Positions 1 through 12,699 of a DNA stretch of 64,000 nt are shown in pieces (the stretch's first letter is position 1; each line of letters starts with the position of its first letter). The stretch lies in assembly GCF_029227855.1 (NCBI RefSeq), contig NZ_CP074356.1, one strand, 5' to 3'. The position numbers and the translations under genes are program-made. This DNA comes from Escherichia coli (lineage in GTDB: Bacteria; Pseudomonadota; Gammaproteobacteria; Enterobacterales; Enterobacteriaceae). Under the pieces are notes generated by a model. That model searched no databases. It was not told the origin of the DNA and was given only the letters and a program-made list of their open reading frames with translations.

Positions 1-102
1 GACACTGCGCTGGATCGTCTGATGCAGGGTGCACCGGCACCGCTGGCTGCAGGTAACCCGGCATCTGATGCCGTTAACGATTTGCTGAACACACCAGTGT
101 AA
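1..102 (+). CDS. C: 3' end of lambda gpC/Nu3 (capsid protease/scaffold), truncated by the window edge
   Basis: Frame 1 is open from base 1 and ends ...DAVNDLLNTPV with TAA at 100-102, just upstream of D. The DNA matches my memory of lambda immediately before D. Confidence 0.75.
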   Translation, partial: DTALDRLMQGAPAPLAAGNPASDAVNDLLNTPV

Positions 103-111
103 GGGATGTTT

Positions 112-444
112 ATGACGAGCAAAGAAACCTTTACCCATTACCAGCCGCTGGGCAACAGTGACCCGGCTCATACCGCAACCGCGCCAGGCGGATTGAGTGC
201 GAAAGCGCCTGCAATGACCCCGCTGATGCTGGACACCTCCACCCGTAAGCTGGTTGCGTGGGATGGCACCACCGACGGTGCTGCTGTCGGCATTCTTGCT
301 GTTGCTGCTGACCAGACCAGCACCACGCTGACGTTCTACAAGTCCGGCACGTTCCGTTATGAGGATGTGCTCTGGCCGGAGGCTGCCAGCGACGAGACGA
401 AAAAACGGACCGCGTTTGCCGGAACGGCAATCAGCATCGTTTAA
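112..444 (+). CDS. D: Head decoration protein gpD
   Basis: [12 protein letters not shown]...FAGTAISIV is essentially the lambda gpD sequence (110 aa). The ATG at 112 is preferred over the ATG at 106 because lambda D starts MTSKE. Confidence 0.95.
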
Positions 445-465
445 CCTTACCCTTCATCACTAAAG

Positions 466-486
466 GCCGCCTGTGCGGCTTTTTTT
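466..486 (+). terminator. Small hairpin plus T-run between D and E, as in lambda
   Basis: GCCGC (466-470) pairs with GCGGC (475-479), followed by T7 at 480-486. Confidence 0.5.
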
Positions 487-499
487 ACGGGATTTTTTT

Positions 500-775
500 A
501 TGTCGATGTACACAACCGCCCAGCTGCTGGCGGCAAATGAGCAGAAATTTAAGTTTGATCCGCTGTTTCTGCGTCTCTTTTTCCGTGAGAGCTATCCCTT
601 CACCACGGAGAAAGTCTATCTCTCACAAATTCCGGGGCTGGTAAACATGGCGCTGTACGTTTCGCCGATTGTTTCCGGTGAGGTTATCCGCTCCCGTGGC
701 GGCTCCACCTCTGAATTTACGCCGGGATATGTCAAGCCGAAGCACTTAGCATGGCTTTCTGAGGCTTTCGTGTAG
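500..775 (+). pseudogene. E: Major capsid protein gpE, 5' fragment (codons 1-82) running into island DNA
   Basis: MSMYTTAQLLAANEQKFKFDPLFL...SEFTPGYVKPKH matches lambda gpE residues 1-82. After base 745 the frame reads LAWLSEAFV and stops at 773-775. The rest of E resumes at 11872. Confidence 0.93.
735..744 (+). repeat. Left copy of the 10-bp direct repeat AGCCGAAGCA (attL core)
   Basis: Identical 10-mer at 11864-11873. Both copies lie on the E codons for K-P-K-H. Confidence 0.8.
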
Positions 776-872
776 CTGCTGGTTTTTACACTTAATCTTT
801 TGATAATAAAGAATAAGTTTATCTGGCGCTTTCACTGAATTTTCCTCGTTATCTGTGTGTTGCAATCATCTC

Positions 873-893
873 TGTATTGCAGCTTGTATTGCT
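873..893 (+). repeat. Tandem TGTATTGC motif (TGTATTGCAGCTTGTATTGCT), candidate arm-type Int binding site, left arm
   Basis: A near-identical 21-mer (TGTATTGCAGCATGTATTGCT) lies in the same orientation at 11768-11788. A degenerate third copy, TGTGTTGCAA, lies at 857-866. Confidence 0.5.
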
Positions 894-907
894 TTTTGGG
901 GCTAAAA

Positions 908-2143
908 ATGGCTGGCGAGAACAAACTGAGCGACAAAGCGCTTAAAGGATATCTGGGGAAACCCAGAGAAAAGCAGATCACCATTGCTGATGGAAAGGGG
1001 CTTTCTATTCGTGTGAGTACTAAAGGGGCTGTGAGCTTTGTTTTCTTCTACAGGTTAGCAGGTGGCCGGGCTGCTCCGGTCTGGCTAACGTTGGGTAAAT
1101 ATCCTGATATGTCACTCAAACAGGCAAGGGAAAAGCGCGACGAGTGCCGTGGTTGGTTGGCTGACAAACGTGATCCGCGTATCCAGATTAAGATTCAGGC
1201 TGAAGAACGCTTAAAGCCGGTCACAGTGGAGGATGCACTAAATTACTGGTATGAAAATTACTGTAAGGTGCGTCGTAAAACTCATGCTGTAACGCTTGGC
1301 AGATTTCGAAAGCATATCTTTCCCTATATCGGTCATTTGCCCGTAAATGACACTCACCTATATGAATAGCTGGACTGTTTTGACCGAATTAAACGTAATG
1401 CACCAGTTATGGCGGCGTATGTTTTTTCTGACACTAAATTAGCTCTTCGTTTTTGTCGGGTACGCCAGTACGCGACGTGTGATGCTTTAAAGGATTTGCG
1501 CATGAGTGATGTGGGGCAGATTGCAGGTAAGCGGGATCGGGTTCTGGATGAGGTCGAACTCGGCCAGCTCTGGAAGGCAATTTTTGTCGAGCCTGATTTA
1601 AAACTAATGTCTGAATACACGCGAAAAATGTTTGTGCTTTGTACAGTATTTGGATGTCGAATGAGTGAAGCCCGATTATCAGAATGGAGCGAATGGGATC
1701 TCGAAAGTTGGGTTTGGACTGTGCCAAAAGATCACTCAAAAACTGGTGTTGAAATCGTCAGACCAGTACCTGAAATTCTACGACAGTGGGTAACGGATGT
1801 TCACGAAGAGACAAAACATACTGGTTATGTGCTGGGAAGTCTGCGAATTAGAGAAAGCGTAAGCAAGATTGGGGGGAAAATCGGTAAACGTTTGGGCCAT
1901 GAAAAACAATGGTCACTACACGACCTTAGAAGAACGCTATCTACTCATCTAAGTGATCTCGGTGTTGAATTTTATGTAGTAGAACAACTGTTAGGCCATG
2001 CGCTACCTGGCGTGGCAGGTGTTTACAACCGGAGTAAGTTTATGGCTAAAAAACTGGATGCTCTGGAACTCTGGACTACATATCTCAATAGCATCGCAGC
2101 TGCTGATTCAAAAGTGACAATCCTCAAACAAAAGGCTGGTTAG
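908..2143 (+). pseudogene. int: P4-family tyrosine integrase interrupted by one in-frame amber codon
   Basis: ORFs 857-1369 and 1409-2143 are in the same frame, separated only by TAG at 1367-1369 (context LYE*LDCFDRI; TGG/Trp would fit). The C-terminal part has HDLRRT, LLGH and GVYNRS catalytic-type motifs. The ATG at 908 gives MAGENKLSDKALK. Confidence 0.85.
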
Positions 2144-2144
2144 C

Positions 2145-2375
2145 ATGAAAAAAATGGCAATTGTTGATAAAAAGGGTCTGGAGTACATTCCTAACATTGA
2201 CCGAATGATCCGTGAGAAAGAATGTCGGGAGCTAACTACTCTTGCGAACAGCACACGCTGGAAGCTGGAGAAGGAAGGAAAATTTCCTAAGCGGATCAAG
2301 ATTGGTTCCACTGCTGTTGCATATCGTCTTTCAGAAGTGCAGGCATGGATTCGAGGTGAGTGGGAAACAACTTAA
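2145..2375 (+). CDS. alpA: AlpA-family HTH regulator/excisionase-like protein
   Basis: 76 aa. IREKECRELTTLANSTRWKLEKEGKFPKRIKIGSTAVAYRLSEVQAWI fits the AlpA pattern (G-FP-P-K-G ... W-x-x-EV-x-W). The ATG lies 1 nt after the int stop. Confidence 0.8.
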   Translation: MKKMAIVDKKGLEYIPNIDRMIREKECRELTTLANSTRWKLEKEGKFPKRIKIGSTAVAYRLSEVQAWIRGEWETT

Positions 2376-2382
2376 CTATTAG

Positions 2383-3213
2383 GTGGGCATTGTGGCTATA
2401 TTTCATTATACAGATCTTTTTGGTTTGAAAGGTATATTAGACTCTAATTCTTTATGGGCTACAAACATATATTTCTTAAATGATAAAGAGGAGTCTAACC
2501 ATGGATGTGAATGCTTTCGAAATACAATTAAAATAGTTGATGACAATATCATTCCAAAAGATAAGAAAACTATTTTGCTCAAGTCTCTTGACATGTATGA
2601 GAAAGGGAGGTTACAAAAAGAAAAAGGGATTGATAAACATGTTTATAGCATCTCTTTTTGTAAGGAAAACGATAAGTTAAGTCAGTGGAGAGGTTACGGA
2701 AATAAACAGGGTGTTTGCATTGAGTTTGATGCGGATGAACTTGTGAGCTTTTCTCAAAATATTTATTTAAATTGTGTTGCACATGATGTTATATATTCAA
2801 ATAATAACGATATTACTAAGATGAGTAAGGAGTTGGGAGAGTTTTTTTCTTGTAATGGTATTAATATTAAAGAAATGAATGATCATTTTGTAACAATGGT
2901 CTCTACGTATCAATTTATATCTAAATACATCCCATTTTTTAAACATCCTAGTTTTATCGAAGAGAATGAATTTAGATTGGTATTTACTCCGTGGATGCAA
3001 ATGCCAGATGTGCACTTCAGAATAAATAATAATGGGATCATCCCTTATATCATCATTGATAATAAAGATAATAGAAAGTTACCAATTAAAAGCATTACAA
3101 TTGGCCCGACAAACGATTATGATTTCATTGAGGCTGGTATAAAAATGTTCTTGGATTCAAGAGGATTTAGTTCTGTGGAAATTAAATCCTCATCAATTCC
3201 ATTCAGGGGGTAA
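2383..3213 (+). CDS. DUF2971-like protein (AT-rich cargo)
   Basis: 276 aa with a GTG start. Motifs FHYTD...GIL, FLNDKEE, SISFC...DKLSQWRGYG..GVCIEF and KHPSFIEENEFR resemble the DUF2971 signature. The gene is markedly AT-rich compared with its neighbours. Confidence 0.6.
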   Translation: MGIVAIFHYTDLFGLKGILDSNSLWATNIYFLNDKEESNHGCECFRNTIKIVDDNIIPKDKKTILLKSLDMYEKGRLQKEKGIDKHVYSISFCKENDKLSQWRGYGNKQGVCIEFDADELVSFSQNIYLNCVAHDVIYSNNNDITKMSKELGEFFSCNGINIKEMNDHFVTMVSTYQFISKYIPFFKHPSFIEENEFRLVFTPWMQMPDVHFRINNNGIIPYIIIDNKDNRKLPIKSITIGPTNDYDFIEAGIKMFLDSRGFSSVEIKSSSIPFRG

Positions 3214-3258
3214 GGATTAACACTTTTAATCTATGATATTATAAAAATGGTGGATAAA

Positions 3259-3278
3259 GGCGACCAGAATTGGTCGCC
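3259..3278. terminator. Hairpin between the convergent cargo genes
   Basis: GGCGACCA (3259-3266) pairs with TGGTCGCC (3271-3278). Confidence 0.4.
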
Positions 3279-3344
3279 AATGTGAGTATATAGTTAGCCT
3301 TAATCAGAATACGAGGTTATCGCCTGATAGGCAATGTGAACAGT

Positions 3345-3701
3345 TCAATATTTAGGTGGTTCAACAAGAGCGTTTATCATTGCTCTCAAATTATCGCGAA
3401 CACTTATCCAAGTCTGTTCTGCTCGTTCTAACTCATCAGTGTACAACTTTAATGTTTTATCTATGCCATATGTGGCTATTAAATTTATAGCTTCTTGTAA
3501 TTTTTCAGGATTATTCCTTCTTGGGGGAGTGAATATACCACGGATTTTTCCGGTAATTAAAGCTTTACGGTGTCTACATAGAATACCTTTACTTCCTGCT
3601 GGACAATTACAAGTCATGATTAGCGAGCCAGAATCGTTTGATACAGTGACTATGTATACATCCAAACTACTGCTACTTGTTGCGAAGAATTCGTATTTCA
3701 T
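3345..3701 (-). CDS. Small SWIM-type zinc-finger protein
   Basis: 118 aa. CNCPAGSKGILCRHRKAL fits the CxC...CxH SWIM motif. Convergent with the DUF2971-like gene. Confidence 0.6.
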   Translation of the reverse strand: MKYEFFATSSSSLDVYIVTVSNDSGSLIMTCNCPAGSKGILCRHRKALITGKIRGIFTPPRRNNPEKLQEAINLIATYGIDKTLKLYTDELERAEQTWISVRDNLRAMINALVEPPKY

Positions 3702-3728
3702 GTGTTAGCTCCTTGACTTCAATTATTC

Positions 3729-3920
3729 TTATCCTTTTGGTTCAATACCGCGCCGTAGCAGCTCTTTGCGCCCTAATTCTTTAAGCCAGTTGGCTAGGCT
3801 TATGCCGTCGCTCTGCGCTTCTTTGTCGAATTGCTCTTTTAGCTCTGGAGAAATTCGCATTCTGAATTGTGGAGATTGCCCATCACCCTTAGGACTTTTA
3901 TCGCGTTTGATCGTTGACAA
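3729..3920 (-). CDS. Arc/Mnt-like ribbon-helix-helix repressor candidate
   Basis: SPQFRMRISPELKEQFDKEAQSDGISLANWLKE resembles the Arc N-terminus (PQFNLRWPREVLDLV...). I prefer the TTG start at 3920, which is preceded by AGGTGG. The ATG at 4043 in the ORF track would add a low-complexity extension that overlaps the divergent leader. Confidence 0.55.
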   Translation of the reverse strand: MSTIKRDKSPKGDGQSPQFRMRISPELKEQFDKEAQSDGISLANWLKELGRKELLRRGIEPKG

Positions 3921-3965
3921 GTGACCACCTATTGAATTAGCCTTTTCATTGTTAGGTGACCACCT
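3921..3965. promoter_or_regulatory. Two direct copies of GTGACCACCT, candidate operators in the divergent control region
   Basis: Exact 10-mers at 3921-3930 and 3956-3965. The second copy lies within the palindrome AGGTGACCACCT. The first abuts the repressor start. Confidence 0.4.
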
Positions 3966-3991
3966 TAACACGGGGGCACTTAAAAAAGCAA

Positions 3992-4022
3992 AGCCCGAAG
4001 GTGCTGGGAACACCAACGGGCT
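3992..4022 (+). ncRNA. Structured hairpin in the leader of the early operon (possible C4/CI-like immunity RNA element)
   Basis: AGCCCG-AA-GGTG-CTGGGAA-CACC-AA-CGGGCT forms a two-tier stem with a symmetric AA/AA internal loop. It lies about 40 nt upstream of an icd-like gene, the position of c4 in P1 immI. Confidence 0.3.
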
Positions 4023-4059
4023 TCTAACCACCAACGATAGCAACAGTATCGAGGTAGCT

Positions 4060-4263
4060 ATGAGAAATCATACCACACACCCGCAAGGGCGGGACCCGCA
4101 CAACCTGAATAAATACATCTGGCGTTTTATCGCCTTGAGTACGGCACAACCGCGCATGATTACCATCGAGGCCATCAGCGAACAGGAAGCCCGCCAGCAA
4201 TCCCCAACTGGCTGCGTGATGGTATTCGCCGCCCGTATTCGTCAGGAGGTGTGCCGTGCTTAA
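4060..4263 (+). CDS. Icd-like (cell division inhibitor-like) small protein
   Basis: 67 aa. KYIWRFIALSTAQPRMITIEAISEQEARQQSP...FAARIRQEV matches my memory of Icd-like proteins from P4-type satellites. GAGGT lies 5 nt upstream of the ATG at 4060. Confidence 0.55.
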   Translation: MRNHTTHPQGRDPHNLNKYIWRFIALSTAQPRMITIEAISEQEARQQSPTGCVMVFAARIRQEVCRA

Positions 4264-4441
4264 AACCTTCCGTGTATTTGCCCGAGCTGTTAACCCACTG
4301 GGCCACACAATTGGTATCACTCAGAACGTGAAGGCTGTTAATGTTCAGACGGCTATTGCTGCGGTGAGAAGCGAATCATCAGAATATGGCTTATCACAAG
4401 TCATTATTTCAGCAGTGTATGAATTAAAAGAGGTGCATTAA
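4256..4441 (+). CDS. Hypothetical protein
   Basis: 61 aa with a GTG start overlapping the upstream stop. Part of a tightly packed same-strand operon. Confidence 0.45.
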   Translation: MLKTFRVFARAVNPLGHTIGITQNVKAVNVQTAIAAVRSESSEYGLSQVIISAVYELKEVH

Positions 4442-4632
4442 TGCAGGAAATCACATTACACGAAGCCGCTGAACGTGCGCACCAGACAGAAATTATTTGC
4501 CGCCTTCTTGAGGTATACCCGAACAAAATTACAGATGCTGATATATCCGCGCTGGCGAGCCTACTGGCGCGCCTTTCGGGAAGTGTCGCTAGTTTCCTGA
4601 TTGAGGAAGAAAGTAAGCTGGTGGGGGATTAA
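4441..4632 (+). CDS. Hypothetical protein
   Basis: 63 aa. TAATG overlap with the upstream gene suggests translational coupling. Confidence 0.5.
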   Translation: MQEITLHEAAERAHQTEIICRLLEVYPNKITDADISALASLLARLSGSVASFLIEEESKLVGD

Positions 4633-4854
4633 ATGAATACAGAACGGGAAGTCTTTTTTAAATTGTTAGCATGTGCAGAAAGTTCATTAACTTTAAATAA
4701 TTCAGCAAAAGCAATATTAAATATGTGGCTTGATTGCATAAATGACAATGAAGATGCAAATATTGCTTATGGCCTGTTGTCACTTATTGATGAATCAGCA
4801 GAAAAACTCAATGACGCAATAAATAGTGCCCTGCTATCAAATAAGTCGAGTTAA
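4633..4854 (+). CDS. Hypothetical protein (AT-rich)
   Basis: 73 aa. The ATG directly follows the upstream TAA. Confidence 0.5.
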   Translation: MNTEREVFFKLLACAESSLTLNNSAKAILNMWLDCINDNEDANIAYGLLSLIDESAEKLNDAINSALLSNKSS

Positions 4855-4871
4855 GTCGAGGAATAAATAAT

Positions 4872-5171
4872 ATGGAAATGAAAAATTCTGGCTTTATTGC
4901 CAGCGGCCCCGCTCGGCCTGAATTTATGAACGGCGATATTTACCGCGATAAATACGGCGGCACGGTAACGATTAAAGGCGTGGCAGAACGGCGCATCACT
5001 TACCGCCGTGAGGGGTATAGCTATGACTGCGTGATGCCTGTTTATCAGTTCCGGCGTGATTTTTCCCTGGTATATGCCGCACCCCGCAGTAAGCCCATCA
5101 GCAGGGAAAAAGCGCGGGGAAACATCCAGAAAATGAAAAGCATGATTAACGCATTCAGGGGCAAAAAATGA
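4872..5171 (+). CDS. Hypothetical protein
   Basis: 99 aa. ATGA overlap with the primase-helicase gene. Confidence 0.55.
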   Translation: MEMKNSGFIASGPARPEFMNGDIYRDKYGGTVTIKGVAERRITYRREGYSYDCVMPVYQFRRDFSLVYAAPRSKPISREKARGNIQKMKSMINAFRGKK

Positions 5172-6919
5172 AACTGGCACCGAACTTAAAAAAACAGCCA
5201 CGCGACAGACTGACAGAGGTAATCATCTTTGCAGGTAGTGATGCGTGGAGCCATGCGAAAGAGTGGCGGGAATGGGCGGGTAAACATATTGCCGCCGACG
5301 ATGTGCCGCCTGTCGTGCTGGCTGATGAGCAACTGAAAAATATCACCGATTACCGGATCATTGATGAAGATCGTCAGTGTGTGCGTGTTTACCGCGCAGG
5401 ACATATCACAGAGCACAGCATGACGCAGATTGTTACGTTACTGGCTGTGGCTGGAGTGAAGACCGTACACGAATACGCGGGGATTACTGACACCAGCCCA
5501 GTGGATTTATCCGAGCAGTTGCCGCGACTCAAAGAGGAATGCGAGCGTGGGGAAAGTCTGGTGCTTAATCTTCCGACGAAGCAAAAGGCGCAACTTTCAC
5601 AGATGGCAGACAGTGAACGTGCACAACTACTTGCCGATCGCTTTGATGGTGTGTGTGTTCATGCAGAAAGTGAAATCGTCCACGTATGGCGCGGCGGGGT
5701 ATGGTGTCCGGTCAGCACAATGGAGCTGAGCCGCGAAATGGTGGCGATCTATTCAGAGCACAGGGCCACGTTCAGCAAACGTGTAATCAATAACGCCGTG
5801 GAAGCGTTAAAAGTTATTGCCGACCCCATGGGGGAGCCGTCCGGTGATTTGCTACCGTTCACTAATGGTGTGCTTAACCTGAAAACGGGGGAATTTTCTC
5901 CGCACTCGCCGGAGCACTGGAGCACCACGCACAATGGCATTGAGTACACGCCACCAGTAGCAGGGGAAAACATCCGCGATAATGCGCCAAATTTCCATAA
6001 ATGGCTTGAACATGCTGCAAGAAAAGACCCGCGCAAGATGATGCGTATATGTGCCGCGTTATACATGATTATGGCGAACCGCTACGACTGGCAGATGTTC
6101 ATTGAGGCCACCGGAGACGGGGGAAGCGGTAAGAGTACATTTACCCATATTGCCACCCTGCTTGCTGGCAAACAGAACACCGTAAGCGCGGAGATGACAT
6201 CACTCGATGATGCAGGAGGGCGCGCGCAGGTTGTCGGGAGTCGTCTTATCGTCCTTGCCGATCAGCCGAAATATACGGGGGAAGGCACGGGCATCAAGAA
6301 AATCACGGGAGGCGATCCCGTTGAAATTAACCCGAAATATGAGAAGCGATTCACGACGATAATAAGGGCGGTGGTACTGGCAACCAATAACGACCCGATG
6401 ATCTTTACCGAACGGGCCGGAGGTGTGTCACGCCGTCGGGTGATTTTCCGGTTCGACAACATTGTAAGGGAGGACGAAAAAGACAAGGAATTACCGGAAA
6501 AGATAGCGGCAGAAATCCCCGTAATTATCCGCCGCTTGCTGGCTAATTTTGCTGACCCTGAAAAGGCACGGGCTTTATTACTGGAACAGCGTGACGGTGA
6601 TGAAGCTCTGGCAATAAAGCAGCAAACGGATCCGGTTGTTGAGCTTTGCGCGGCGCTGGAGTTTCTGGAGGAAGCTCGTGGGCTAATGATGGGCGGTGGT
6701 GGTGACACCGTGAAGTACACGACCAGAAACAGCCTTTACCGTGTCTATATGGCCTTCATGGCATACACAGGAAAGGGGAAATGTTTGAGCGTGAATGAGT
6801 TCGGAAAGGCTATGAGGTCAGCGGCGAAAGTTTACGGATATGAATATATTACGCGAAAAGTTAAGGGAGTCACGCAGACCAACGCAACGACTACTGATGA
6901 TTGCGATGCGTTTTTATAA
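5168..6919 (+). CDS. P4/D5-family primase-helicase (replication initiator, pri-rep type)
   Basis: 583 aa. FHKWLEHAARKD...YDWQMFIEATGDGGSGKSTF fits the phage/plasmid primase P4-family C-terminal NTPase with a Walker A motif. An iteron field lies immediately downstream. Confidence 0.8.
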   Translation: MKLAPNLKKQPRDRLTEVIIFAGSDAWSHAKEWREWAGKHIAADDVPPVVLADEQLKNITDYRIIDEDRQCVRVYRAGHITEHSMTQIVTLLAVAGVKTVHEYAGITDTSPVDLSEQLPRLKEECERGESLVLNLPTKQKAQLSQMADSERAQLLADRFDGVCVHAESEIVHVWRGGVWCPVSTMELSREMVAIYSEHRATFSKRVINNAVEALKVIADPMGEPSGDLLPFTNGVLNLKTGEFSPHSPEHWSTTHNGIEYTPPVAGENIRDNAPNFHKWLEHAARKDPRKMMRICAALYMIMANRYDWQMFIEATGDGGSGKSTFTHIATLLAGKQNTVSAEMTSLDDAGGRAQVVGSRLIVLADQPKYTGEGTGIKKITGGDPVEINPKYEKRFTTIIRAVVLATNNDPMIFTERAGGVSRRRVIFRFDNIVREDEKDKELPEKIAAEIPVIIRRLLANFADPEKARALLLEQRDGDEALAIKQQTDPVVELCAALEFLEEARGLMMGGGGDTVKYTTRNSLYRVYMAFMAYTGKGKCLSVNEFGKAMRSAAKVYGYEYITRKVKGVTQTNATTTDDCDAFL

Positions 6920-6932
6920 AAAATGGCAATGG

Positions 6933-7161
6933 TTATCTACCTTGTCTACCTGACTGAAAGAAAATACTTTTATTTCAATGTATTAATGCAGGTAGATAAC
7001 TATTTTTCACTGTCTACCTGTTATCTACCTTATCTACCCATTTTTGTAGACAGGTAAGGAGACGGGTAGAGATGAGGTAGACAGCTATTTGGGGCTGTCT
7101 ACCTCCCTGAAACCCGCGCCATTACTGGCCTGATAACTAATCAGGTAGACAAGGTAGACAA
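6933..7161. repeat. Iteron field, candidate satellite origin of replication
   Basis: At least 10 copies of GGTAGA(C/T)A or its complement, in both orientations: 6933-6941, 6942-6950, 6991-6999, 7011-7018, 7021-7029, 7030-7038, 7077-7085, 7095-7103, 7144-7152, 7153-7161. AT-rich spacers lie around 6955-6990. Confidence 0.75.
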
Positions 7162-7208
7162 GGTGGTGGTGCACAAAAAACTTTTTAAACGAGGGGGTAA
7201 AAATAAAA

Positions 7209-7466
7209 ATGCACACTTCAGGAAAACTGAACAAACATATAAAGCCACATTACCGCGCCCTTGATATGGCTGAACACTGGCTAAGGGTGGCGATTAAGGC
7301 AATAGACCGCAACGCCGGGGAAGGATACGCGAAAGCACATCCCGAACTGATAAGCGCATTCATGACAACGGCGGCTGCAAACTTTGCCACGCTGACCGAA
7401 CGGGAGATTGCTGAAGCGGAGGAAGTGACAACAATCAATATTAAGTCCGGAGAGCAGGCAGCATGA
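7209..7466 (+). CDS. Hypothetical protein
   Basis: 85 aa. ATGA overlap with the SSB gene. Confidence 0.5.
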   Translation: MHTSGKLNKHIKPHYRALDMAEHWLRVAIKAIDRNAGEGYAKAHPELISAFMTTAAANFATLTEREIAEAEEVTTINIKSGEQAA

Positions 7467-7912
7467 CGGCGCAAATATCAGTTTACGGGCGGTTGGTGGA
7501 CGACCCGCAGACAAAACAGACCAGCAAGGGCACCCCCATGACGCTGGCGCGTATGGCGGTATCACTGCCCTGCAGTCAGTCGGATGACGGTCTGGCGACG
7601 TTGTGGTTATCTGTCCTGGCGTTTGGCAGACAAGCCGACGCGCTGGCAAAGCATCACAAAGGCGAACTCCTGAGCGTGGCGGGTAACATGCAGATGAGCC
7701 AGTGGACTGGACAGAACGGCGAAACGCGGCAGGGCTGGCAGGTTATCGCAGACAGCGTAATCAGTGCGCGATCGGTGCGACCGGGCGGCAAAAAAGGCCA
7801 ACAGGGGCAGGCTACTGACGCACTGAACAGAGCAAAACAACAGGCAGATCAGCAAGGAAGCCAGCCACCAGAGGGAGATAATGAGCAATGGGGAGATGAT
7901 ATCCCGTTTTAA
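7463..7912 (+). CDS. ssb: Single-stranded DNA-binding protein (SSB family)
   Basis: 149 aa. OB-fold-type N-terminus (VYGRLVDDPQTKQT...WLSVLAFGRQAD...KGELLSVAGNMQMSQW), a Gln/Gly-rich linker, and the canonical acidic tip DDIPF. Confidence 0.8.
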   Translation: MTAQISVYGRLVDDPQTKQTSKGTPMTLARMAVSLPCSQSDDGLATLWLSVLAFGRQADALAKHHKGELLSVAGNMQMSQWTGQNGETRQGWQVIADSVISARSVRPGGKKGQQGQATDALNRAKQQADQQGSQPPEGDNEQWGDDIPF

Positions 7913-7923
7913 ATATTGCCAAT

Positions 7924-7954
7924 AAAAAAAGCCGGAAAAAATAAATTTTCCGGC
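7924..7954 (-). terminator. Hairpin with its T-run only on the minus strand, between the replication and capsid modules
   Basis: GCCGGAAAA (7931-7939) pairs with TTTTCCGGC (7946-7954). A7 at 7924-7930 gives a U-tract only for leftward transcription. Confidence 0.4.
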
Positions 7955-8128
7955 ATGCTACATAAATCCCGACCAAAGGGAGTGAAGATATTAACACTAA
8001 TTGTCCGCACTGAAGTTGTCACACCAAAACTTTATACAACATTGCACTCGGTTGCATGTGTTCGCATGACAAATATCGGTGATAGCATATATCCACAATT
8101 ATTTTTAATGAATGCAAAGAGGATGCGT

Positions 8129-9169
8129 ATGGTTGATTTATATTCGCCTACTCAGCTTGTACAGGTAGTTAATGCTGTAGATGTACAAAAACAACTAAAT
8201 GCGTTGTTTACCAGTTTGTTTTTTACTCGCTCGGTAATGTTTGAATCGCGCGATATTATTCTTGATACAATCGACGATCCAAATATCCCAATTGCAGCGT
8301 TTTGTTCTCCTATGGTGGGTAGTAAAGTTTCACGTGACGAAGGGTACGAATCAAAAACAATTCGTCCAGGCTATATGAAGCCGAAAAGCAGCATTGATCC
8401 AAATAAGTTAGCTGTGCGCCCTGCTGGTGTGTCACCTGAGCAATACAATGCTTTTGGGGCGCGTAATATTAAAGTTAAACAGGCGATTGTAAATCAGGCT
8501 AAAGCTATTCGTGCACGTATTGAATGGCTTGCTGTTCAGGCAATCACAACGGGGAAAAATATCATTGAGGGCGATGGTATTGAACGTTATGAGCTGGACT
8601 GGAATATAAAACCACAAAATATCATCACTCAGTCTGGCGGTACTGAGTGGTCAGGTAAGGATAAAGAAACTTTTGATCCAAATGATGATATTGAGAGCTA
8701 CGCAGAATTTAGTGAGGGCGTCACTAATATCATCATTATGGGTGGTAATGTATGGAAGAAATACCGTTCATTCAGAGCGATAAAAGAGGCTTTGGATACC
8801 CGTCGTGGTTCTAATTCCGAACTGGAAACGGCCCTTAAAGACCTTGGTGATTCGGTGAGTTTTAAAGGGTATATGGGCGATGTTGCGATTGTTGTTTACA
8901 GCGGGCGTTATACCGACGAGGACGGAACAGAAAAACATTTCCTTGATCCTGATTTGATGGTGCTTGGCAATACGGCTCTTCAGGGGATTGTCGCCTATGG
9001 CGGTATTCAGGATCCGGAGCTAATCCGAATGGGGCTGACTAAAGCCGAACTTGCACCGAAAAACTATATTGTGCCTGGTGATCCGGCTATTGAATATGTG
9101 CAGACACATTCAGCACCACAGCCAATACCGGCCCGCATCAATCGTTTTGTTACCGTTCGCATTGGCTAA
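8129..9169 (+). CDS. Satellite-encoded major capsid protein, gpE (lambda E) family
   Basis: 346 aa. The C-terminal half aligns by eye with lambda gpE: ITQSGGTEWSGKDKETFDPNDDIESYA, LDTRRGSNSELETALKDLG, YMGDVAIVVYSGRY, MVLGNTA, PGDPA. The N-terminal half is much more diverged. The ATG at 8129 has AAGAGGA 6 nt upstream. The longer ORF from 7916 has no homology support. Confidence 0.88.
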   Translation: MVDLYSPTQLVQVVNAVDVQKQLNALFTSLFFTRSVMFESRDIILDTIDDPNIPIAAFCSPMVGSKVSRDEGYESKTIRPGYMKPKSSIDPNKLAVRPAGVSPEQYNAFGARNIKVKQAIVNQAKAIRARIEWLAVQAITTGKNIIEGDGIERYELDWNIKPQNIITQSGGTEWSGKDKETFDPNDDIESYAEFSEGVTNIIIMGGNVWKKYRSFRAIKEALDTRRGSNSELETALKDLGDSVSFKGYMGDVAIVVYSGRYTDEDGTEKHFLDPDLMVLGNTALQGIVAYGGIQDPELIRMGLTKAELAPKNYIVPGDPAIEYVQTHSAPQPIPARINRFVTVRIG

Positions 9170-9178
9170 GGGGGAGCA

Positions 9179-9520
9179 ATGGCTACTCATTACACTGAAC
9201 TCATGGCTGGCACTGAAGCACTGGTGACTACGCTGGGGATATTTTCAGCTAATAAAGGGGTAATTCCTGCATTTACGCCACTGATGCAGGAAGATGCAAC
9301 AGGTGCACTGGTGGTATGGGATGGTTCGAGCGTAGGTAAAGCGGTTTATGTTTCCGCTGTACAAATCGACACCGCGAAAAAAACACAGGCTCAGGTCTAT
9401 AAGACAGGTGTCTTAAATGTTGATGCTCTGAACTGGCCTGAGTCTGTTAAAGAACTGTCAGTAAAGGTTGCAGCGTTTGTTGGCTCAGGTATTTCTGTTC
9501 AGCCGCTGGCTCGTGTGTAA
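9179..9520 (+). CDS. Satellite-encoded head decoration protein, gpD family
   Basis: 113 aa. Shares TPLM, LVxWDG, YKxG, LxWPE and AFxGxGIS with lambda gpD in the same order. Confidence 0.75.
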   Translation: MATHYTELMAGTEALVTTLGIFSANKGVIPAFTPLMQEDATGALVVWDGSSVGKAVYVSAVQIDTAKKTQAQVYKTGVLNVDALNWPESVKELSVKVAAFVGSGISVQPLARV

Positions 9521-9531
9521 AGGGGGATACA

Positions 9532-9915
9532 ATGCAGAATGATTACAATGACCTTAAGCCAATTGCCGAAATGATGTACCCGAATCAAGCTGTAGAGGAA
9601 TTAAAAGCTATCGCTGACAAAATGTGTTTAAGCGAGCGCCTTGTTGATATGAATCAGGTGATGGAAATTACAACCCTGAGTCGTCGTACACTGCTAAACC
9701 TTGAGGCTAGTGGAGAGTTCCCGGAGCGTGTGCAGGTTACGGAAGGGCGTAAGGCCTGGTATTTAAGTGAAGTGATCGACTGGATAAATAATATTCCTCG
9801 CGCTTCTGAATATTGCCGCGTACCTGTCCCAAAAAAGCCAGATGCGGCGCTATGCCTCAAGATTGAGCGTGTACGCCGCAATGCACGGGATGGTCGCTAT
9901 AAGCTGATTGGTTGA
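9532..9915 (+). CDS. AlpA/MerR-like winged-HTH protein immediately upstream of cos
   Basis: 127 aa. MNQVMEITTLSRRTLLNLEASGEFPERVQVTEGRKAWYLSEVIDWI fits the AlpA pattern. It is the last gene before the cos site. Confidence 0.65.
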   Translation: MQNDYNDLKPIAEMMYPNQAVEELKAIADKMCLSERLVDMNQVMEITTLSRRTLLNLEASGEFPERVQVTEGRKAWYLSEVIDWINNIPRASEYCRVPVPKKPDAALCLKIERVRRNARDGRYKLIG

Positions 9916-9922
9916 TGAAATT

Positions 9923-9948
9923 AGGACCCGCTCTGGCTGGCGGGTCCT
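9923..9948 (+). terminator. Hairpin after the capsid module
   Basis: AGGACCCGC (9923-9931) pairs with GCGGGTCCT (9940-9948), followed by TTCC (a weak T-run). Confidence 0.45.
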
Positions 9949-9954
9949 TTCCGG

Positions 9955-10140
9955 CGATCCAGAACGTTACGGGGCGTCAGGCGCGCAGTTTTTCGCTATT
10001 TGTGAAAATTTTCCTGTTTAAGGCGTTTCCGTTCTTCTTCGCCGTAACTTAATGTTTTTATTAAAAACACCCCCTAAAAAGAAAGGAAACGACAGGTGCT
10101 AAAAACAGGCTTTTTGGCCTCTGTCGTTTCCTTTCTCTGG
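9955..10140 (+). other. cos: Lambda-type cos site (cosN plus cosB R3-I1-R2-R1) with no adjacent terminase genes
   Basis: CGTTACG|GGGCGTCAGGCG|CGCAGTTTTTCGCTATTTGTGAAAATTTTCCTGTTTAAGGCGTTTCCGTTCTTCTTCG...GAAAGGAAACGACAGGTGCT...GGCTTTTTGGCCTCTGTCGTTTCCTTTCTCTG is collinear with my memory of the first ~180 bp of lambda. The R-site repeats CGTTTCC lie at about 10023-10034, 10081-10095 (inverted) and 10121-10135. The predicted 12-nt end at 9972-9983 matches lambda GGGCGGCGACCT at 7 of 12 positions. Confidence 0.85.
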
Positions 10141-10479
10141 TTTTGTTGCCATCCGTCGCGGTCTATCACCAGAAAAAATCTTATCCCTGAGTTGAATCAG
10201 GCCCTATTCAGAAGCGGCCAATAACGCGCCGCTAGCTTCACTTCATAGTTATGGCCTACTTCTGCGCCATTGCAATTGCTTTATGCGCCTTGATGGTGGA
10301 ATATAGAGCAAGCAGTTTGCGAATAACAAAGTTTCATATGTTTTTTGCTGTGTGGCTAGACAACTTTACAGCAGAGTTTTGTGTCAGTTCTTTATGTGTG
10401 CAAGCAAGCTTGAGGGGGAATTACTTCTGGCTGTATCTTTGCTTAAGAACAGCAATAATTTAATCATAAGGAAATGTAT

Positions 10480-10506
10480 ATAAGCCTGATTAAATTTCAG
10501 GCTTAT
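10480..10506 (-). terminator. Hairpin just downstream of the TIR gene
   Basis: ATAAGCCTGA (10480-10489) pairs with TCAGGCTTAT (10497-10506), 8 nt past the stop of the minus-strand gene. Confidence 0.5.
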
Positions 10507-10513
10507 TGAAATG

Positions 10514-11656
10514 TTAACTCCTTATTAGAGAGTAAATTCCATCCTCTTTAAGGAAGTCTATTACTTCAAAGAATGAGATAAAGAATTCCCAAGAACCAAA
10601 AGCATATGCATGAATTTCGTAAGGTGCAAAATGGAATCTAAATCCATCACTATTTATTGTGAACGAGTCTAAGTTACTATCCATGATACCCGTTGCAAAC
10701 GTACTAATGTCGTCCTCACTTGGTTTTTCACCAGTTTTCTCCCAAAATTCACGAGCTGATTCAGAGATTATTTTTTGTTTTATCTTATTAATCGCTTCTT
10801 GCTCTTTCCCTTCGGTAAATACATCCCATAAACTAAATTTGTATGCGTAGTCATCCTTGGTTATTACGAAATTACTAGTTTCAAAATGACTGTTAGGGTG
10901 TGCTGCTCCCGCACCATACCAATGTACGGAATGAAGGATGCTCATGACATTTTCGTTACAGTATGAGATGTTATAACTTTCATTATAGGAACTAGTGTAA
11001 GTGTGTTTATATTCTTCATCCCAATATGGTGTTCCTGGCCATAGTGATGTGCGTTCAGAAAAAATATGTAAAGCCGCTTTTCCTGAAAAGTAATCACTAA
11101 TGAGTTTTGCTGATTTCGGTAATGTATGGCTTTCAATTCTTGGATATGCTATTTCAATTTCATGCCCTGGGATCTTGTTATATTCTTCCTTGAAAACCTC
11201 GCTGCTAAAGTTAAATGGCCCATAAGTGATACCTTGAGATATTTCAAGTTTTTGTTGCGATGCTGCTAATCTTAAAGATCTAGATAAAATGTCCCAACCA
11301 TCATTTCTCTTAAAATCAATGAATTGGAGCTTGCTTGATATGTAGGCGGGTACTTCGCAATCATCAATAAGTAATGGTATCACGAACACATCATCTGGTT
11401 TGTAATACTTTAGTTTATCAATGGCGTCATTTATTTCGCGGCGAATATAACCATTTTTCTGAGTGCTCACTTTGCTAAGGATAAGGATTATCAAGTTTGA
11501 ATTAGCGAAGTTTTTTTGGATTTCATAATCCCAGTTTACGCCAGCGGGTATATCTTTTACATCCATCCAAGGGGAATATCCTCCACTTTTTAGCCTTTCA
11601 TAGATTTCTTCAGTTATCGTTTCATCTTCTTTTGCATGAGCAAGAAAAATTTTCAT
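10514..11656 (-). CDS. TIR-domain protein fused to a DUF4163/DUF3298 (RsiV-like) C-terminal domain
   Basis: 380 aa with no signal peptide or TM segment visible. The N-terminus (MKIFLAHAKEDE...GYSPWMDVKDIPAGVNWDYEI...SNLIILILSKVSTQKNGYIRREINDAI) fits the TIR_2 pattern, including the conserved Glu position. The C-terminus has IEIAYPRI... and HWYGAGAAHPNSHFETSNF...FSLWDVF, resembling the DUF4163 and DUF3298 motifs. AT-rich. Confidence 0.7.
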   Translation of the reverse strand: MKIFLAHAKEDETITEEIYERLKSGGYSPWMDVKDIPAGVNWDYEIQKNFANSNLIILILSKVSTQKNGYIRREINDAIDKLKYYKPDDVFVIPLLIDDCEVPAYISSKLQFIDFKRNDGWDILSRSLRLAASQQKLEISQGITYGPFNFSSEVFKEEYNKIPGHEIEIAYPRIESHTLPKSAKLISDYFSGKAALHIFSERTSLWPGTPYWDEEYKHTYTSSYNESYNISYCNENVMSILHSVHWYGAGAAHPNSHFETSNFVITKDDYAYKFSLWDVFTEGKEQEAINKIKQKIISESAREFWEKTGEKPSEDDISTFATGIMDSNLDSFTINSDGFRFHFAPYEIHAYAFGSWEFFISFFEVIDFLKEDGIYSLIRS

Positions 11657-11767
11657 TGAATATTCCTTTATAATTTAACTAATTAAGTGAAGGAGGCTTT
11701 ACTTGGCTGTGTTAGAAAAAATTCGGTTTGTTTTTTGTACGATGCCAAGAAGGCTTTTCCCTAACCA

Positions 11768-11788
11768 TGTATTGCAGCATGTATTGCT
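11768..11788 (+). repeat. Tandem TGTATTGC motif (TGTATTGCAGCATGTATTGCT), candidate arm-type Int site, right arm
   Basis: Matches 873-893 at 20 of 21 positions, in the same orientation. Confidence 0.5.
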
Positions 11789-11863
11789 ACGTAATTCTGC
11801 ACCCTCTCATTTATAAAATAAATCTCTGTTAAATCAAGTATCTTTTTTCTATTTGACTCATGT

Positions 11864-11873
11864 AGCCGAAGCA
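11864..11873 (+). repeat. Right copy of the 10-bp direct repeat AGCCGAAGCA (attR core)
   Basis: Identical to 735-744. Followed by TGAGGTGAATCCGCAG, the continuation of lambda E (H-E-V-N-P-Q). Confidence 0.8.
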
Positions 11874-12699
11874 TGAGGTGAATCCGCAGATGACCCTGCG
11901 TCGCCTGCCGGATGAAGATCCGCAGAATCTGGCGGACCCGGCTTACCGCCGCCGTCGCATCATTATGCAGAACATGCGTGACGAAGAGCTGGCCATTGCC
12001 CAGGTCGAAGAGATGCAGGCAGTTTCTGCCGTGCTTAAGGGCAAATACACCATGACCGGTGAAGCCTTCGATCCGGTTGAGGTGGATATGGGCCGCAGTG
12101 AGGCGAATAACATCACGCAGTCCGGCGGCACGGAGTGGAGCAAGCGTGACAAGTCCACGTATGACCCGACCGACGATATCGAAGCCTACGCGCTGAACGC
12201 CAGCGGAGTGGTGAATATCATCGTGTTTGATCCGAAAGGCTGGGCGCTGTTCCGTTCCTTCAAAGCCGTCAAGGAGAAGCTGGATACTCGTCGCGGCTCT
12301 CATTCCGAGCTGGAGACAGCGGTGAAAGACCTGGGCAAAGCGGTGTCCTACAAGGGGATGTATGGCGATGTGGCCATCGTCGTGTATTCCGGACAGTACG
12401 TGGAAAACGGCGTCAAAAAGAACTTCCTGCCGGACAACACGATGGTGCTGGGGAACACTCAGGCACGCGGTCTGCGCACCTATGGCTGCATTCAGGATGC
12501 GGACGCACAGCGCGAAGGCATTAACTCCTCTGCCCGTTACCCGAAAAACTGGGTGACCACCGGCGATCCGGCGCGTGAGTTCACCATGATTCAGTCAGCA
12601 CCGCTGATGCTGCTGGCTGACCCTGATGAGTTCGTGTCCGTACAACTGGCGCAATCGTGGCCCTTCGGGGCCATTTTCTCTCTGTGGAGGAGTCCATGA
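11872..12699 (+). pseudogene. E: Major capsid protein gpE, 3' fragment (codons 82-341), with loss of the normal stop
   Basis: HEVNPQMTLRRLPDEDPQNLADPAYRRRR...DPDEFVSVQLA matches lambda gpE 82-341. The expected TAA is CAA (12652-12654), so the frame runs 15 more codons (QSWPFGAIFSLWRSP) to TGA at 12697-12699. Confidence 0.93.

Follow-up and report, generated by a model that had tools for sequence, protein, structure and literature searches.

A probable anti-phage DUF2971 cargo gene and a separate RHH-SWIM operon in a helper-embedded satellite of Escherichia coli

Aristaios is a single DUF2971 gene from the Lactococcus plasmid pUCCL641_199 (Grafakou et al. 2024, PMC11381338). It acts by abortive infection, blocking phage transcription and protein production (PMC11381338, PMC13064643, PMC12967558), and it is the sole member of the DUF2971 family that has been tested. 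Bioinformatic work has predicted the family to be an H-Y-E-clade ADP-ribosyltransferase (ART), near DarT and AbiGi (PMC12522546). A second line of work concerns helper-embedded phage-inducible chromosomal islands (PICIs), of which the '11capE' type was described by Tommasini, Mageeney and Williams 2023 (PMC10111431). Such satellites split into an Integration zone (int, alpA), a Bro/dynamic zone, a Replication zone and a Late zone; the Bro/dynamic zone is regarded as regulatory/immunity, and late read-through from the helper into the satellite has been described (PMC10111431). Here we describe positions 2383-3701 of a 64,000-nucleotide (nt) stretch of E. coli contig NZ_CP074356.1 (the whole stretch is called the window below), where a DUF2971 gene and a SWIM zinc-finger gene face each other inside a satellite of this type.

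The explanation we favor, and consider fairly probable, is that the two genes belong to two independent modules of a helper-embedded PICI: a single-gene DUF2971 ART cargo causing Aristaios-like abortive infection, and an operon consisting of a ribbon-helix-helix (RHH) gene and the SWIM gene. The DUF2971 gene is probably a single-gene anti-phage ADP-ribosyltransferase. Earlier publications already cover this type of island, cargo slots in satellites as a concept, the placing of DUF2971 among the ARTs, and an anti-phage DUF2971 protein. What is new is that the slot is located and bounded precisely, that the enterobacterial DUF2971 gene is one interchangeable cassette, and that the SWIM gene is moved to a repressor operon. 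The features concerned are as follows.

2392..3213, plus strand: DUF2971 gene, 273 amino acids (aa), a predicted ADP-ribosyltransferase-fold effector; the longest open reading frame (ORF) is 2383..3213
About 2376-3255, no strand: variable cargo slot, the 'Bro/dynamic zone' of Gram-negative PICIs (naming of PMC10111431), holding one gene here
3259..3278, minus strand: hairpin with a perfect 8-bp stem, GGCGACCA-GAAT-TGGTCGCC, at the right edge of the cargo slot
3345..3701, minus strand: SWIM gene (PF04434), 118 aa, second gene of the RHH operon
3729..3920, minus strand: RHH gene, 63 aa, TTG start, first gene of the leftward operon; matches the phrog_228 Arc-like repressor (E = 1.2e-6)
3921..3965, minus strand: putative operator, two exact AGGTGGTCAC copies (3921-3930 and 3956-3965) directly upstream of the RHH start

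The ORFs 2383..3213 (plus strand) and 3345..3701 (minus strand) point toward each other. GC content is 30.7% in the DUF2971 gene, 36.1% in the SWIM gene and 36.6% in the spacer between them, compared with 43.7-45.1% in alpA and int, 51.7% in the primase gene, 43.8% over the whole island and 57.6% in the prophage to its right. An initial annotation of this DNA had called two convergent low-GC genes here, one with DUF2971-type motifs and one with a CxC...CxH SWIM finger, and it was right in each respect. The DUF2971 protein matches Pfam PF11185 with E = 1.2e-11 (46.2 bits, cut-off 22), and the SWIM protein matches PF04434 with E = 2.6e-5 (24.1 bits, cut-off 19.6). Positions 2383-3701 are 100% identical to several complete E. 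coli genomes, including strain 10 (NZ_CP048330), where the genes are annotated as 'DUF2971 domain-containing protein' and 'SWIM zinc finger family protein'. Translation of DUF2971 likely starts at GTG 2392 rather than at 2383, because an AGGTGG Shine-Dalgarno sequence lies 5 nt upstream, the RefSeq product has 273 aa and the nearest homologues likewise have 273 aa. The SWIM ATG is preceded by an AAGGAG ribosome-binding site. No housekeeping role was found for either gene.

All 74 homologues of the DUF2971 protein that we aligned also match PF11185. T7, N30, D31, E34, W99, R100, Y102, K184, F188, E191, E193, R195, R210 and P239 are invariant in this alignment, with H5 (>90%) and Y6 nearly so. 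The conserved residues make up the motifs FHYT, SQWRGYG and EExExR, and E191/E193 form an invariant ExE where a strand begins. Conservation of H5, Y102 and E191-E193 agrees with the description of the H-Y-E motif in PMC12522546. The subfamily with the DxLSQWRGY motif is spread over at least 549 loci in many phyla. In all, 547 plasmids carry homologues, as do a few phages and one Streptococcus satellite; Lactococcus is absent among the organisms named for the plasmid matches. Compared with diverged E. coli alleles, the ratio of nonsynonymous to synonymous substitution rates (dN/dS) of the gene is 0.11-0.45, which shows that it is under purifying selection.

The structural model predicts an ADP-ribosyltransferase core fold, and the structural matches to the model agree with it. 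The closest solved structures are DarT DNA ADP-ribosyltransferases and the RNA 2'-phosphotransferase Tpt1, with the following scores.

DarT, M. tuberculosis (7yk3_C): 7.6
DarT, Thermus (7omv): 7.6
DarTG, Thermosipho (7omu): 7.1
Tpt1, yeast (7yw4): 6.7
DarT1, E. coli (8baq): 6.7

Further ADP-ribosyltransferases rank below these structures with lower scores, and Foldseek likewise puts DarT first (E = 8e-3, probability 0.93). Weak sequence matches to Tox-ART-HYD1 (18 of the 74 members) and AbiGi (9 of the 74) point to an ADP-ribosyltransferase, as the fold does. A search of PDB sequences with the DUF2971 profile returned chance matches to GABA receptors only, and no DarT.

Among described systems, Aristaios is alike in being a single gene with a PF11185 domain, an ADP-ribosyltransferase fold, carriage on a mobile element and no partner gene. 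It differs in its length of 316 aa and its Gram-positive plasmid, whereas the window protein has 273 aa, sits in an E. coli satellite and has a predicted phenotype. The DUF2971 gene of the window also resembles Aristaios in standing alone, as its neighbours vary across orthologous islands and across 80 distant loci. DarT shares the fold (7yk3, 7omv, 7omu and 8baq are among the nearest structures) but differs from DUF2971, which has large helical inserts between the core strands (also PMC12522546). The window protein has no match to the Pfam family DarT (DUF4433) at E <= 1, and DarT is not among the families that most of the 74 members match. No DarG macrodomain antitoxin lies near DUF2971, whose neighbours are alpA and the SWIM and RHH genes. 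We therefore rejected an identity with DarTG. The PADLOC entry PDC-S31 is alike as a single-gene candidate, and its hidden Markov models (HMMs) match 50 of the 74 family members (best E = 1.4e-9); it is a computational candidate only, and our literature search found no paper describing it. It had been suggested from the sequence that neither protein of the pair fits a defence system that can be named. This no longer holds for DUF2971, given Aristaios and the PDC-S31 matches. For the SWIM, RHH and alternative cargo genes, PADLOC and NCBIfam gave no usable matches.

The DUF2971 gene occupies a slot with clean edges. When islands with the same alpA are aligned, homology drops out directly past the alpA stop codon and returns at the hairpin, so the slot of about 2376-3255 holds the DUF2971 gene only. 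The accessory slot that the initial annotation had placed between core modules is therefore real, and its contents differ between islands. Islands L015 (3276-4097) and L107 carry a 273-aa phrog_16034 protein with no Pfam or PADLOC match. Island L016 of strain MLI106K3 (3342-4139) carries a 265-aa membrane protein, whose family members have 254-265 aa and a predicted membrane helix. A Bro-N gene fills the slot in L017 (3821-4402), L109, L005 and L112, and the slot is vacant in L002-L004, L006 and L007. In Enterobacter, the slot consists of two cassettes side by side, a membrane-protein gene and DUF2971 (a slot gene of L114 lies at 4212-4976). The L016 cargo gene is 71% identical to the gene adjoining DUF2971 in these Enterobacter islands, which indicates cassette shuffling. 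The phrog_16034 protein and the membrane protein are candidate defence genes, and a census of the slot could yield further single-gene anti-phage candidates of this sort, to which the TIR-DUF3298 gene of a second slot (see below) can be added.

The DUF2971 and SWIM genes fall in the dynamic zone of the satellite. The published 11capE dynamic zone is dominated by genes of the Bro network and immunity RNAs (PMC10111431), whereas the zone in the window consists of an ART-like gene and an RHH-SWIM operon. P4-like satellites and PICIs have defence hotspots (Rousset et al. 2022 and Fillol-Salom et al., via PMC13612085) that are comparable in having a fixed backbone slot with interchangeable low-GC anti-phage genes. 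They differ in that P4 is another satellite family with its slot between psu and int, unlike the window slot, which lies directly after alpA. A slot so cleanly bounded, from the alpA stop to the RHH-SWIM terminator, is of use in the little-studied helper-embedded PICIs, and it supplies an E. coli representative of the DUF2971/Aristaios ART family in a host with easy genetics and phage panels.

Independence of the two genes shows in their distribution. The initial annotation had treated DUF2971 and SWIM as a pair and had proposed co-occurrence across genomes as a check. This check fails, as each family occurs without the other. DUF2971 is missing next to SWIM in four of six SWIM lineages (P0123, P0124, P0132, P0134), and SWIM is missing next to DUF2971 in four of six lineages of DUF2971 orthologues (P0003, P0005, P0011, P0021). 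Among complete E. coli genomes, SWIM is present in 52 and DUF2971 in 35. P0123 is an E. coli SWIM allele (74% identical, 372 contigs) found in the same kind of island, convergent with alpA and without DUF2971; a 63-aa RHH gene invariably precedes it by 27 nt. Klebsiella michiganensis, Buttiauxella agrestis and Rahnella have SWIM without DUF2971 in the same arrangement. A SWIM protein identical to that of the window (WP_000872983.1) adjoins the unrelated 265-aa membrane protein in MLI106K3, and near-identical alleles adjoin the 273-aa phrog_16034 protein or a Bro-N protein. Conversely, DUF2971 orthologues with 43-59% identity lie directly after int-alpA, with an RHH gene but no SWIM gene, in Klebsiella aerogenes, Enterobacter ludwigii, Enterobacter sp. 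and E. kobei. Outside E. coli, both genes occur together only in a Buttiauxella gaviniae island (L010). We also searched the best 80 of the at least 549 DUF2971 loci with a SWIM HMM within 8 kb. No significant SWIM gene was found there, and no partner family recurs across lineages among the immediate neighbours. An anti-phage function had been proposed for the pair; it is plausible for the DUF2971 gene, and the pairing with SWIM is what falls away.

The SWIM gene instead belongs to the RHH repressor operon. It sits 27-30 nt downstream of the RHH gene in every island context seen (27 nt in the window). RHH genes at the same site in other islands, among them islands without SWIM, share 58-63% identity with the RHH gene of the window, and the orthologous RHH genes of Enterobacter are solitary, with no downstream gene. 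SWIM is therefore an optional add-on to the RHH operon. The RHH protein starts with TTG, where other alleles have ATG; its best match is an Arc-like repressor, and its HicB matches are weak. One of the AGGTGGTCAC copies upstream of its start lies within a 16-nt palindrome, TAAGGTGGTCACCTAA. Other RHH alleles have different repeated palindromes at the same position, which suggests co-evolving operators, and we infer that the repeats could be an autoregulated operator.

The hairpin at 3259-3278 had been described as shared by the two genes. It is present exactly there, but it is not shared and goes with SWIM. Where DUF2971 is absent, islands have a GC-rich stem 66-112 nt past the SWIM stop, with TTTGTTTTATG coming next on the SWIM strand. 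Compensatory variants of this stem occur (GGCGACC/GGTCGCC, GGCCACC/GGTGGCC, GGCGGCC/GGCCGCC). Because it is kept after SWIM when DUF2971 is missing, has its T-tract on the SWIM strand and varies in a compensatory way, the hairpin is predicted to be the terminator of the leftward RHH-SWIM transcript. In the window the T-tract is degraded and reads TTTATCCACCATTTT, and a strict terminator scan of 2000-4400 called no terminator, the hairpin included. There is no T-tract after the stem on the DUF2971 strand. A bidirectional terminator was considered and rejected: the strict scan was empty, folding of the spacer is unremarkable (z = -1.65), and the hairpin is on the SWIM side in other islands.

The SWIM protein consists of three strands and a CxC..CxH helix followed by a long C-terminal helix, and C31, C33, C42 and H44 are invariant across seven SWIM sequences. 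Its AlphaFold2 (AF2) model is weak (predicted local distance difference test score, pLDDT, 66.8), and the Foldseek matches to this model are meaningless (all E > 2). The family of its homologues is small and enterobacterial, with 17 clusters at 90% identity. The protein is also part of a broader group that combines a SWIM finger with a helix, 187 clusters at 50% identity (E <= 1e-3), whose members mostly have 105-125 aa. PHROGs assigns the protein to a family of unknown function. The gene is under strong purifying selection: dN/dS is 0-0.27, and the L016 allele differs by 15 synonymous changes and no nonsynonymous one. Its product most likely binds DNA or protein in a zinc-dependent manner, as an accessory of the satellite regulatory region.

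Combining these results, we propose the following model. DUF2971 would be a cargo cassette in the variable zone of the satellite, directly past alpA. Co-transcription with alpA is probable, since the gene is on the alpA strand and separated from the alpA stop by 16 nt that hold no terminator, and helper late read-through would also transcribe it. Upon phage infection, the DUF2971 protein would transfer ADP-ribose from NAD+ to a nucleic acid or to part of the transcription or translation machinery. This modification would block phage gene expression and abort the infection, as with Aristaios, so that the lysogen, its helper prophage and the satellite would be shielded from competing phages. In the leftward operon, the gene of an Arc-like RHH repressor, which has operator repeats of its own, would come first and SWIM second, and the operon would end at the 3259-3278 hairpin.

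Several points weigh against this model. The anti-phage role of the window DUF2971 protein is a prediction from sequence and structural modeling, as it would be for any enterobacterial orthologue, and H5, Y102 and E193 are putative catalytic positions assigned by conservation. The link of the window protein to Aristaios consists of a shared Pfam family and fold, and its own match to PDC-S31 is weak and partial (E = 1.2e-4, 19.9 bits, 73 of 259 profile positions). The neighbours of distant DUF2971 genes are a mixture of defence-like genes (AAA_21/AriA, Abi_C/AbiJ, DpnII, LmuB, dCTPase, PycC, Old, GajA) and housekeeping genes (GGDEF/EAL, MGMT, radical SAM), a weak indication that has no background control. 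The position after alpA, which is that of eta/kil in P4 and of Bro genes in PICIs, makes a role in the satellite life cycle as natural as a role in defence, and a defence gene switched on with induction would be oddly timed. The accessory role given to SWIM is likewise a deduction. Finally, the integrase has a nonsense codon at 1367-1369 (TGG to TAG relative to strain 10 and IMG/VR copies, which have a single full-length ORF) and is broken into ORFs 857-1369 and 1409-2143. Because of this codon, the satellite in the window strain may be unable to excise, and the island may be decaying.

The main rival explanation is that DUF2971 serves the satellite life cycle. It would be made together with AlpA or during helper late transcription; by ADP-ribosylating some component of the host or the helper, it would stop the cell or steer helper development to the advantage of the satellite. 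At the alpA-coupled position P4 carries eta/kil and PICIs carry Bro-family genes, and Bro-N genes fill this very slot in sister islands. DUF2971 shares its strand with int, alpA and the helper late genes and starts 16 nt past the alpA stop, in a zone that is called regulatory/immunity and for whose satellites helper late read-through is on record (PMC10111431). However, close homologues are common on plasmids (547 records) and at chromosomal sites without satellite context, which is easier to reconcile with a portable, self-sufficient function than with one specific to satellites. Many sister islands do with a vacant slot, and the one family member tested so far protects against phage by abortive infection (PMC11381338). 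We hold a life-cycle role to be somewhat unlikely.

A related possibility goes further and makes DUF2971 a satellite weapon used on induction rather than a resident defence; a separate one makes RHH-SWIM an undescribed protein-based immunity switch of helper-embedded PICIs. If so, the weapon would be translated behind AlpA at helper late transcription and would ADP-ribosylate nucleic acid or transcription machinery of the helper or host, tilting the conflict between helper and satellite. It would amount to a DarT-like ART without an antitoxin at the position of P4 eta/kil. The switch would replace RNA-based immunity of the P4 type, none of which was detected here: an Rfam scan of window positions 1-12500 gave zero matches at E <= 0.1, including to C4/isrK immunity RNAs. 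Such RNAs are reported from some PICI dynamic zones. Any immunity function of the island would therefore be protein-based. We regard the combined proposal of weapon and switch as unlikely.

RHH and SWIM could also form an addiction module resembling a type II toxin-antitoxin system, with RHH as antitoxin, SWIM as toxin and DUF2971 as an unrelated neighbour. The layout is typical, as a small RHH gene lies 27 nt upstream of another small gene with palindromic repeats over the promoter. In addition, some RefSeq alleles are named 'HicB family antitoxin', in keeping with the weak HicB matches of RHH. However, SWIM is not a known toxin fold, and it matches no toxin family in Pfam or NCBIfam, with a weak match to PADLOC PDC-S62 as the only hit. 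A solitary orthologous RHH gene, as in Enterobacter, suits a repressor better than an antitoxin, and the top RHH match is an Arc-like repressor. An addiction module at this locus thus appears quite improbable.

Less probable still is a two-gene system in which SWIM senses, restrains or neutralises the ADP-ribosyltransferase. The two genes are adjacent, convergent and both low in GC. In E. coli, this DUF2971 allele is seen only in islands that also have SWIM, and the distant Buttiauxella island L010 holds both. Yet recent common descent (at least 96% nucleotide identity) accounts for finding the two together in E. coli, and most orthologue lineages of either gene stand apart (four of six on each side), as do all 80 distant loci. 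The identical SWIM protein beside unrelated cargo in L016 also speaks against a pair. SWIM lies in an operon with RHH that has its own predicted terminator, convergent genes cannot share a transcript, and Aristaios works as a single gene (PMC11381338). Adjacency and a common low GC content are insufficient to call a two-gene system. Finally, there is very little chance that one or both genes are decaying passengers without a current function, as the integrase nonsense codon and the degraded T-tract of the hairpin might suggest, given that both ORFs are intact with invariant motif residues, that both genes show the low dN/dS values given above (with no nonsynonymous difference between the window SWIM and that of L016) and that near-identical copies exist in dozens of genomes.

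Two observations on the distant DUF2971 loci are worth recording. In L096, from a metagenome-assembled genome of Marinicaulis, a 151-aa ORF at 9690-10145 on the minus strand, convergent and about 0.9 kb downstream of DUF2971, gives a weak SWIM match (E = 1.8e-4), which may be a chance match or a generic SWIM domain. In nine loci (L040, L046, L048, L054, L064, L065, L080, L085, L089), a homologous convergent gene of about 175-215 aa lies directly downstream of DUF2971. Eight of these nine are in Riflebacteria-type genomes, and the gene may be a lineage-specific partner there.

The island that carries both modules interrupts the lambda-E-like major capsid gene of a lambdoid prophage, and a 10-bp identity block, AGCCGAAGCA, is present at both junctions. 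Its genes are, in order, int, alpA, DUF2971, SWIM, the Arc-like RHH gene, an Icd-like gene, DUF4222, a D5_N primase gene, SSB and then late genes. The right part holds a lambda-E-type capsid gene, a decoration gene, a second AlpA-like helix-turn-helix (HTH) gene and a TIR-DUF3298 gene.

741-11873, about 11 kb: satellite island, with junctions at 741-750 and 11864-11873
2145..2375, plus strand: alpA, AlpA-family regulator/excisionase (Pfam Phage_AlpA, E = 3e-15), final gene of the satellite integration zone
About 8129-9169: the island's own capsid E gene
About 9179-9520: the island's own decoration gene
9532-9915, plus strand: second AlpA-like HTH gene, 127 aa (Phage_AlpA, E = 7.5e-9), after the capsid and decoration genes
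10514-11656, minus strand: TIR_2 + DUF3298 gene, 380 aa, in a second low-GC slot (35.6% GC)

The co-directional int, alpA and primase genes, the insertion into a prophage late gene, the short identity block and the island's own capsid gene make this a helper-embedded PICI of the published 11capE type. The two agree in island type, in the capsid gene E site with its 10-bp block, in having their own capsid gene and in the layout of int-alpA, dynamic, replication and late zones. The TIR-DUF3298 gene is likely a second defence cargo gene of the island; its TIR domain matches PADLOC profiles (Aga_TIR and ThsB-type), and these matches are confined to the N-terminal 120 residues.

One further record concerns a relative of this satellite in K. 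aerogenes. CP142848 (L012), 10,541 bp and deposited as a plasmid, has the same gene order and the same DUF2971 protein as the chromosomal satellite CP142846 (L011) of the same assembly. It is probably an excised circular satellite, and would therefore indicate an active element.

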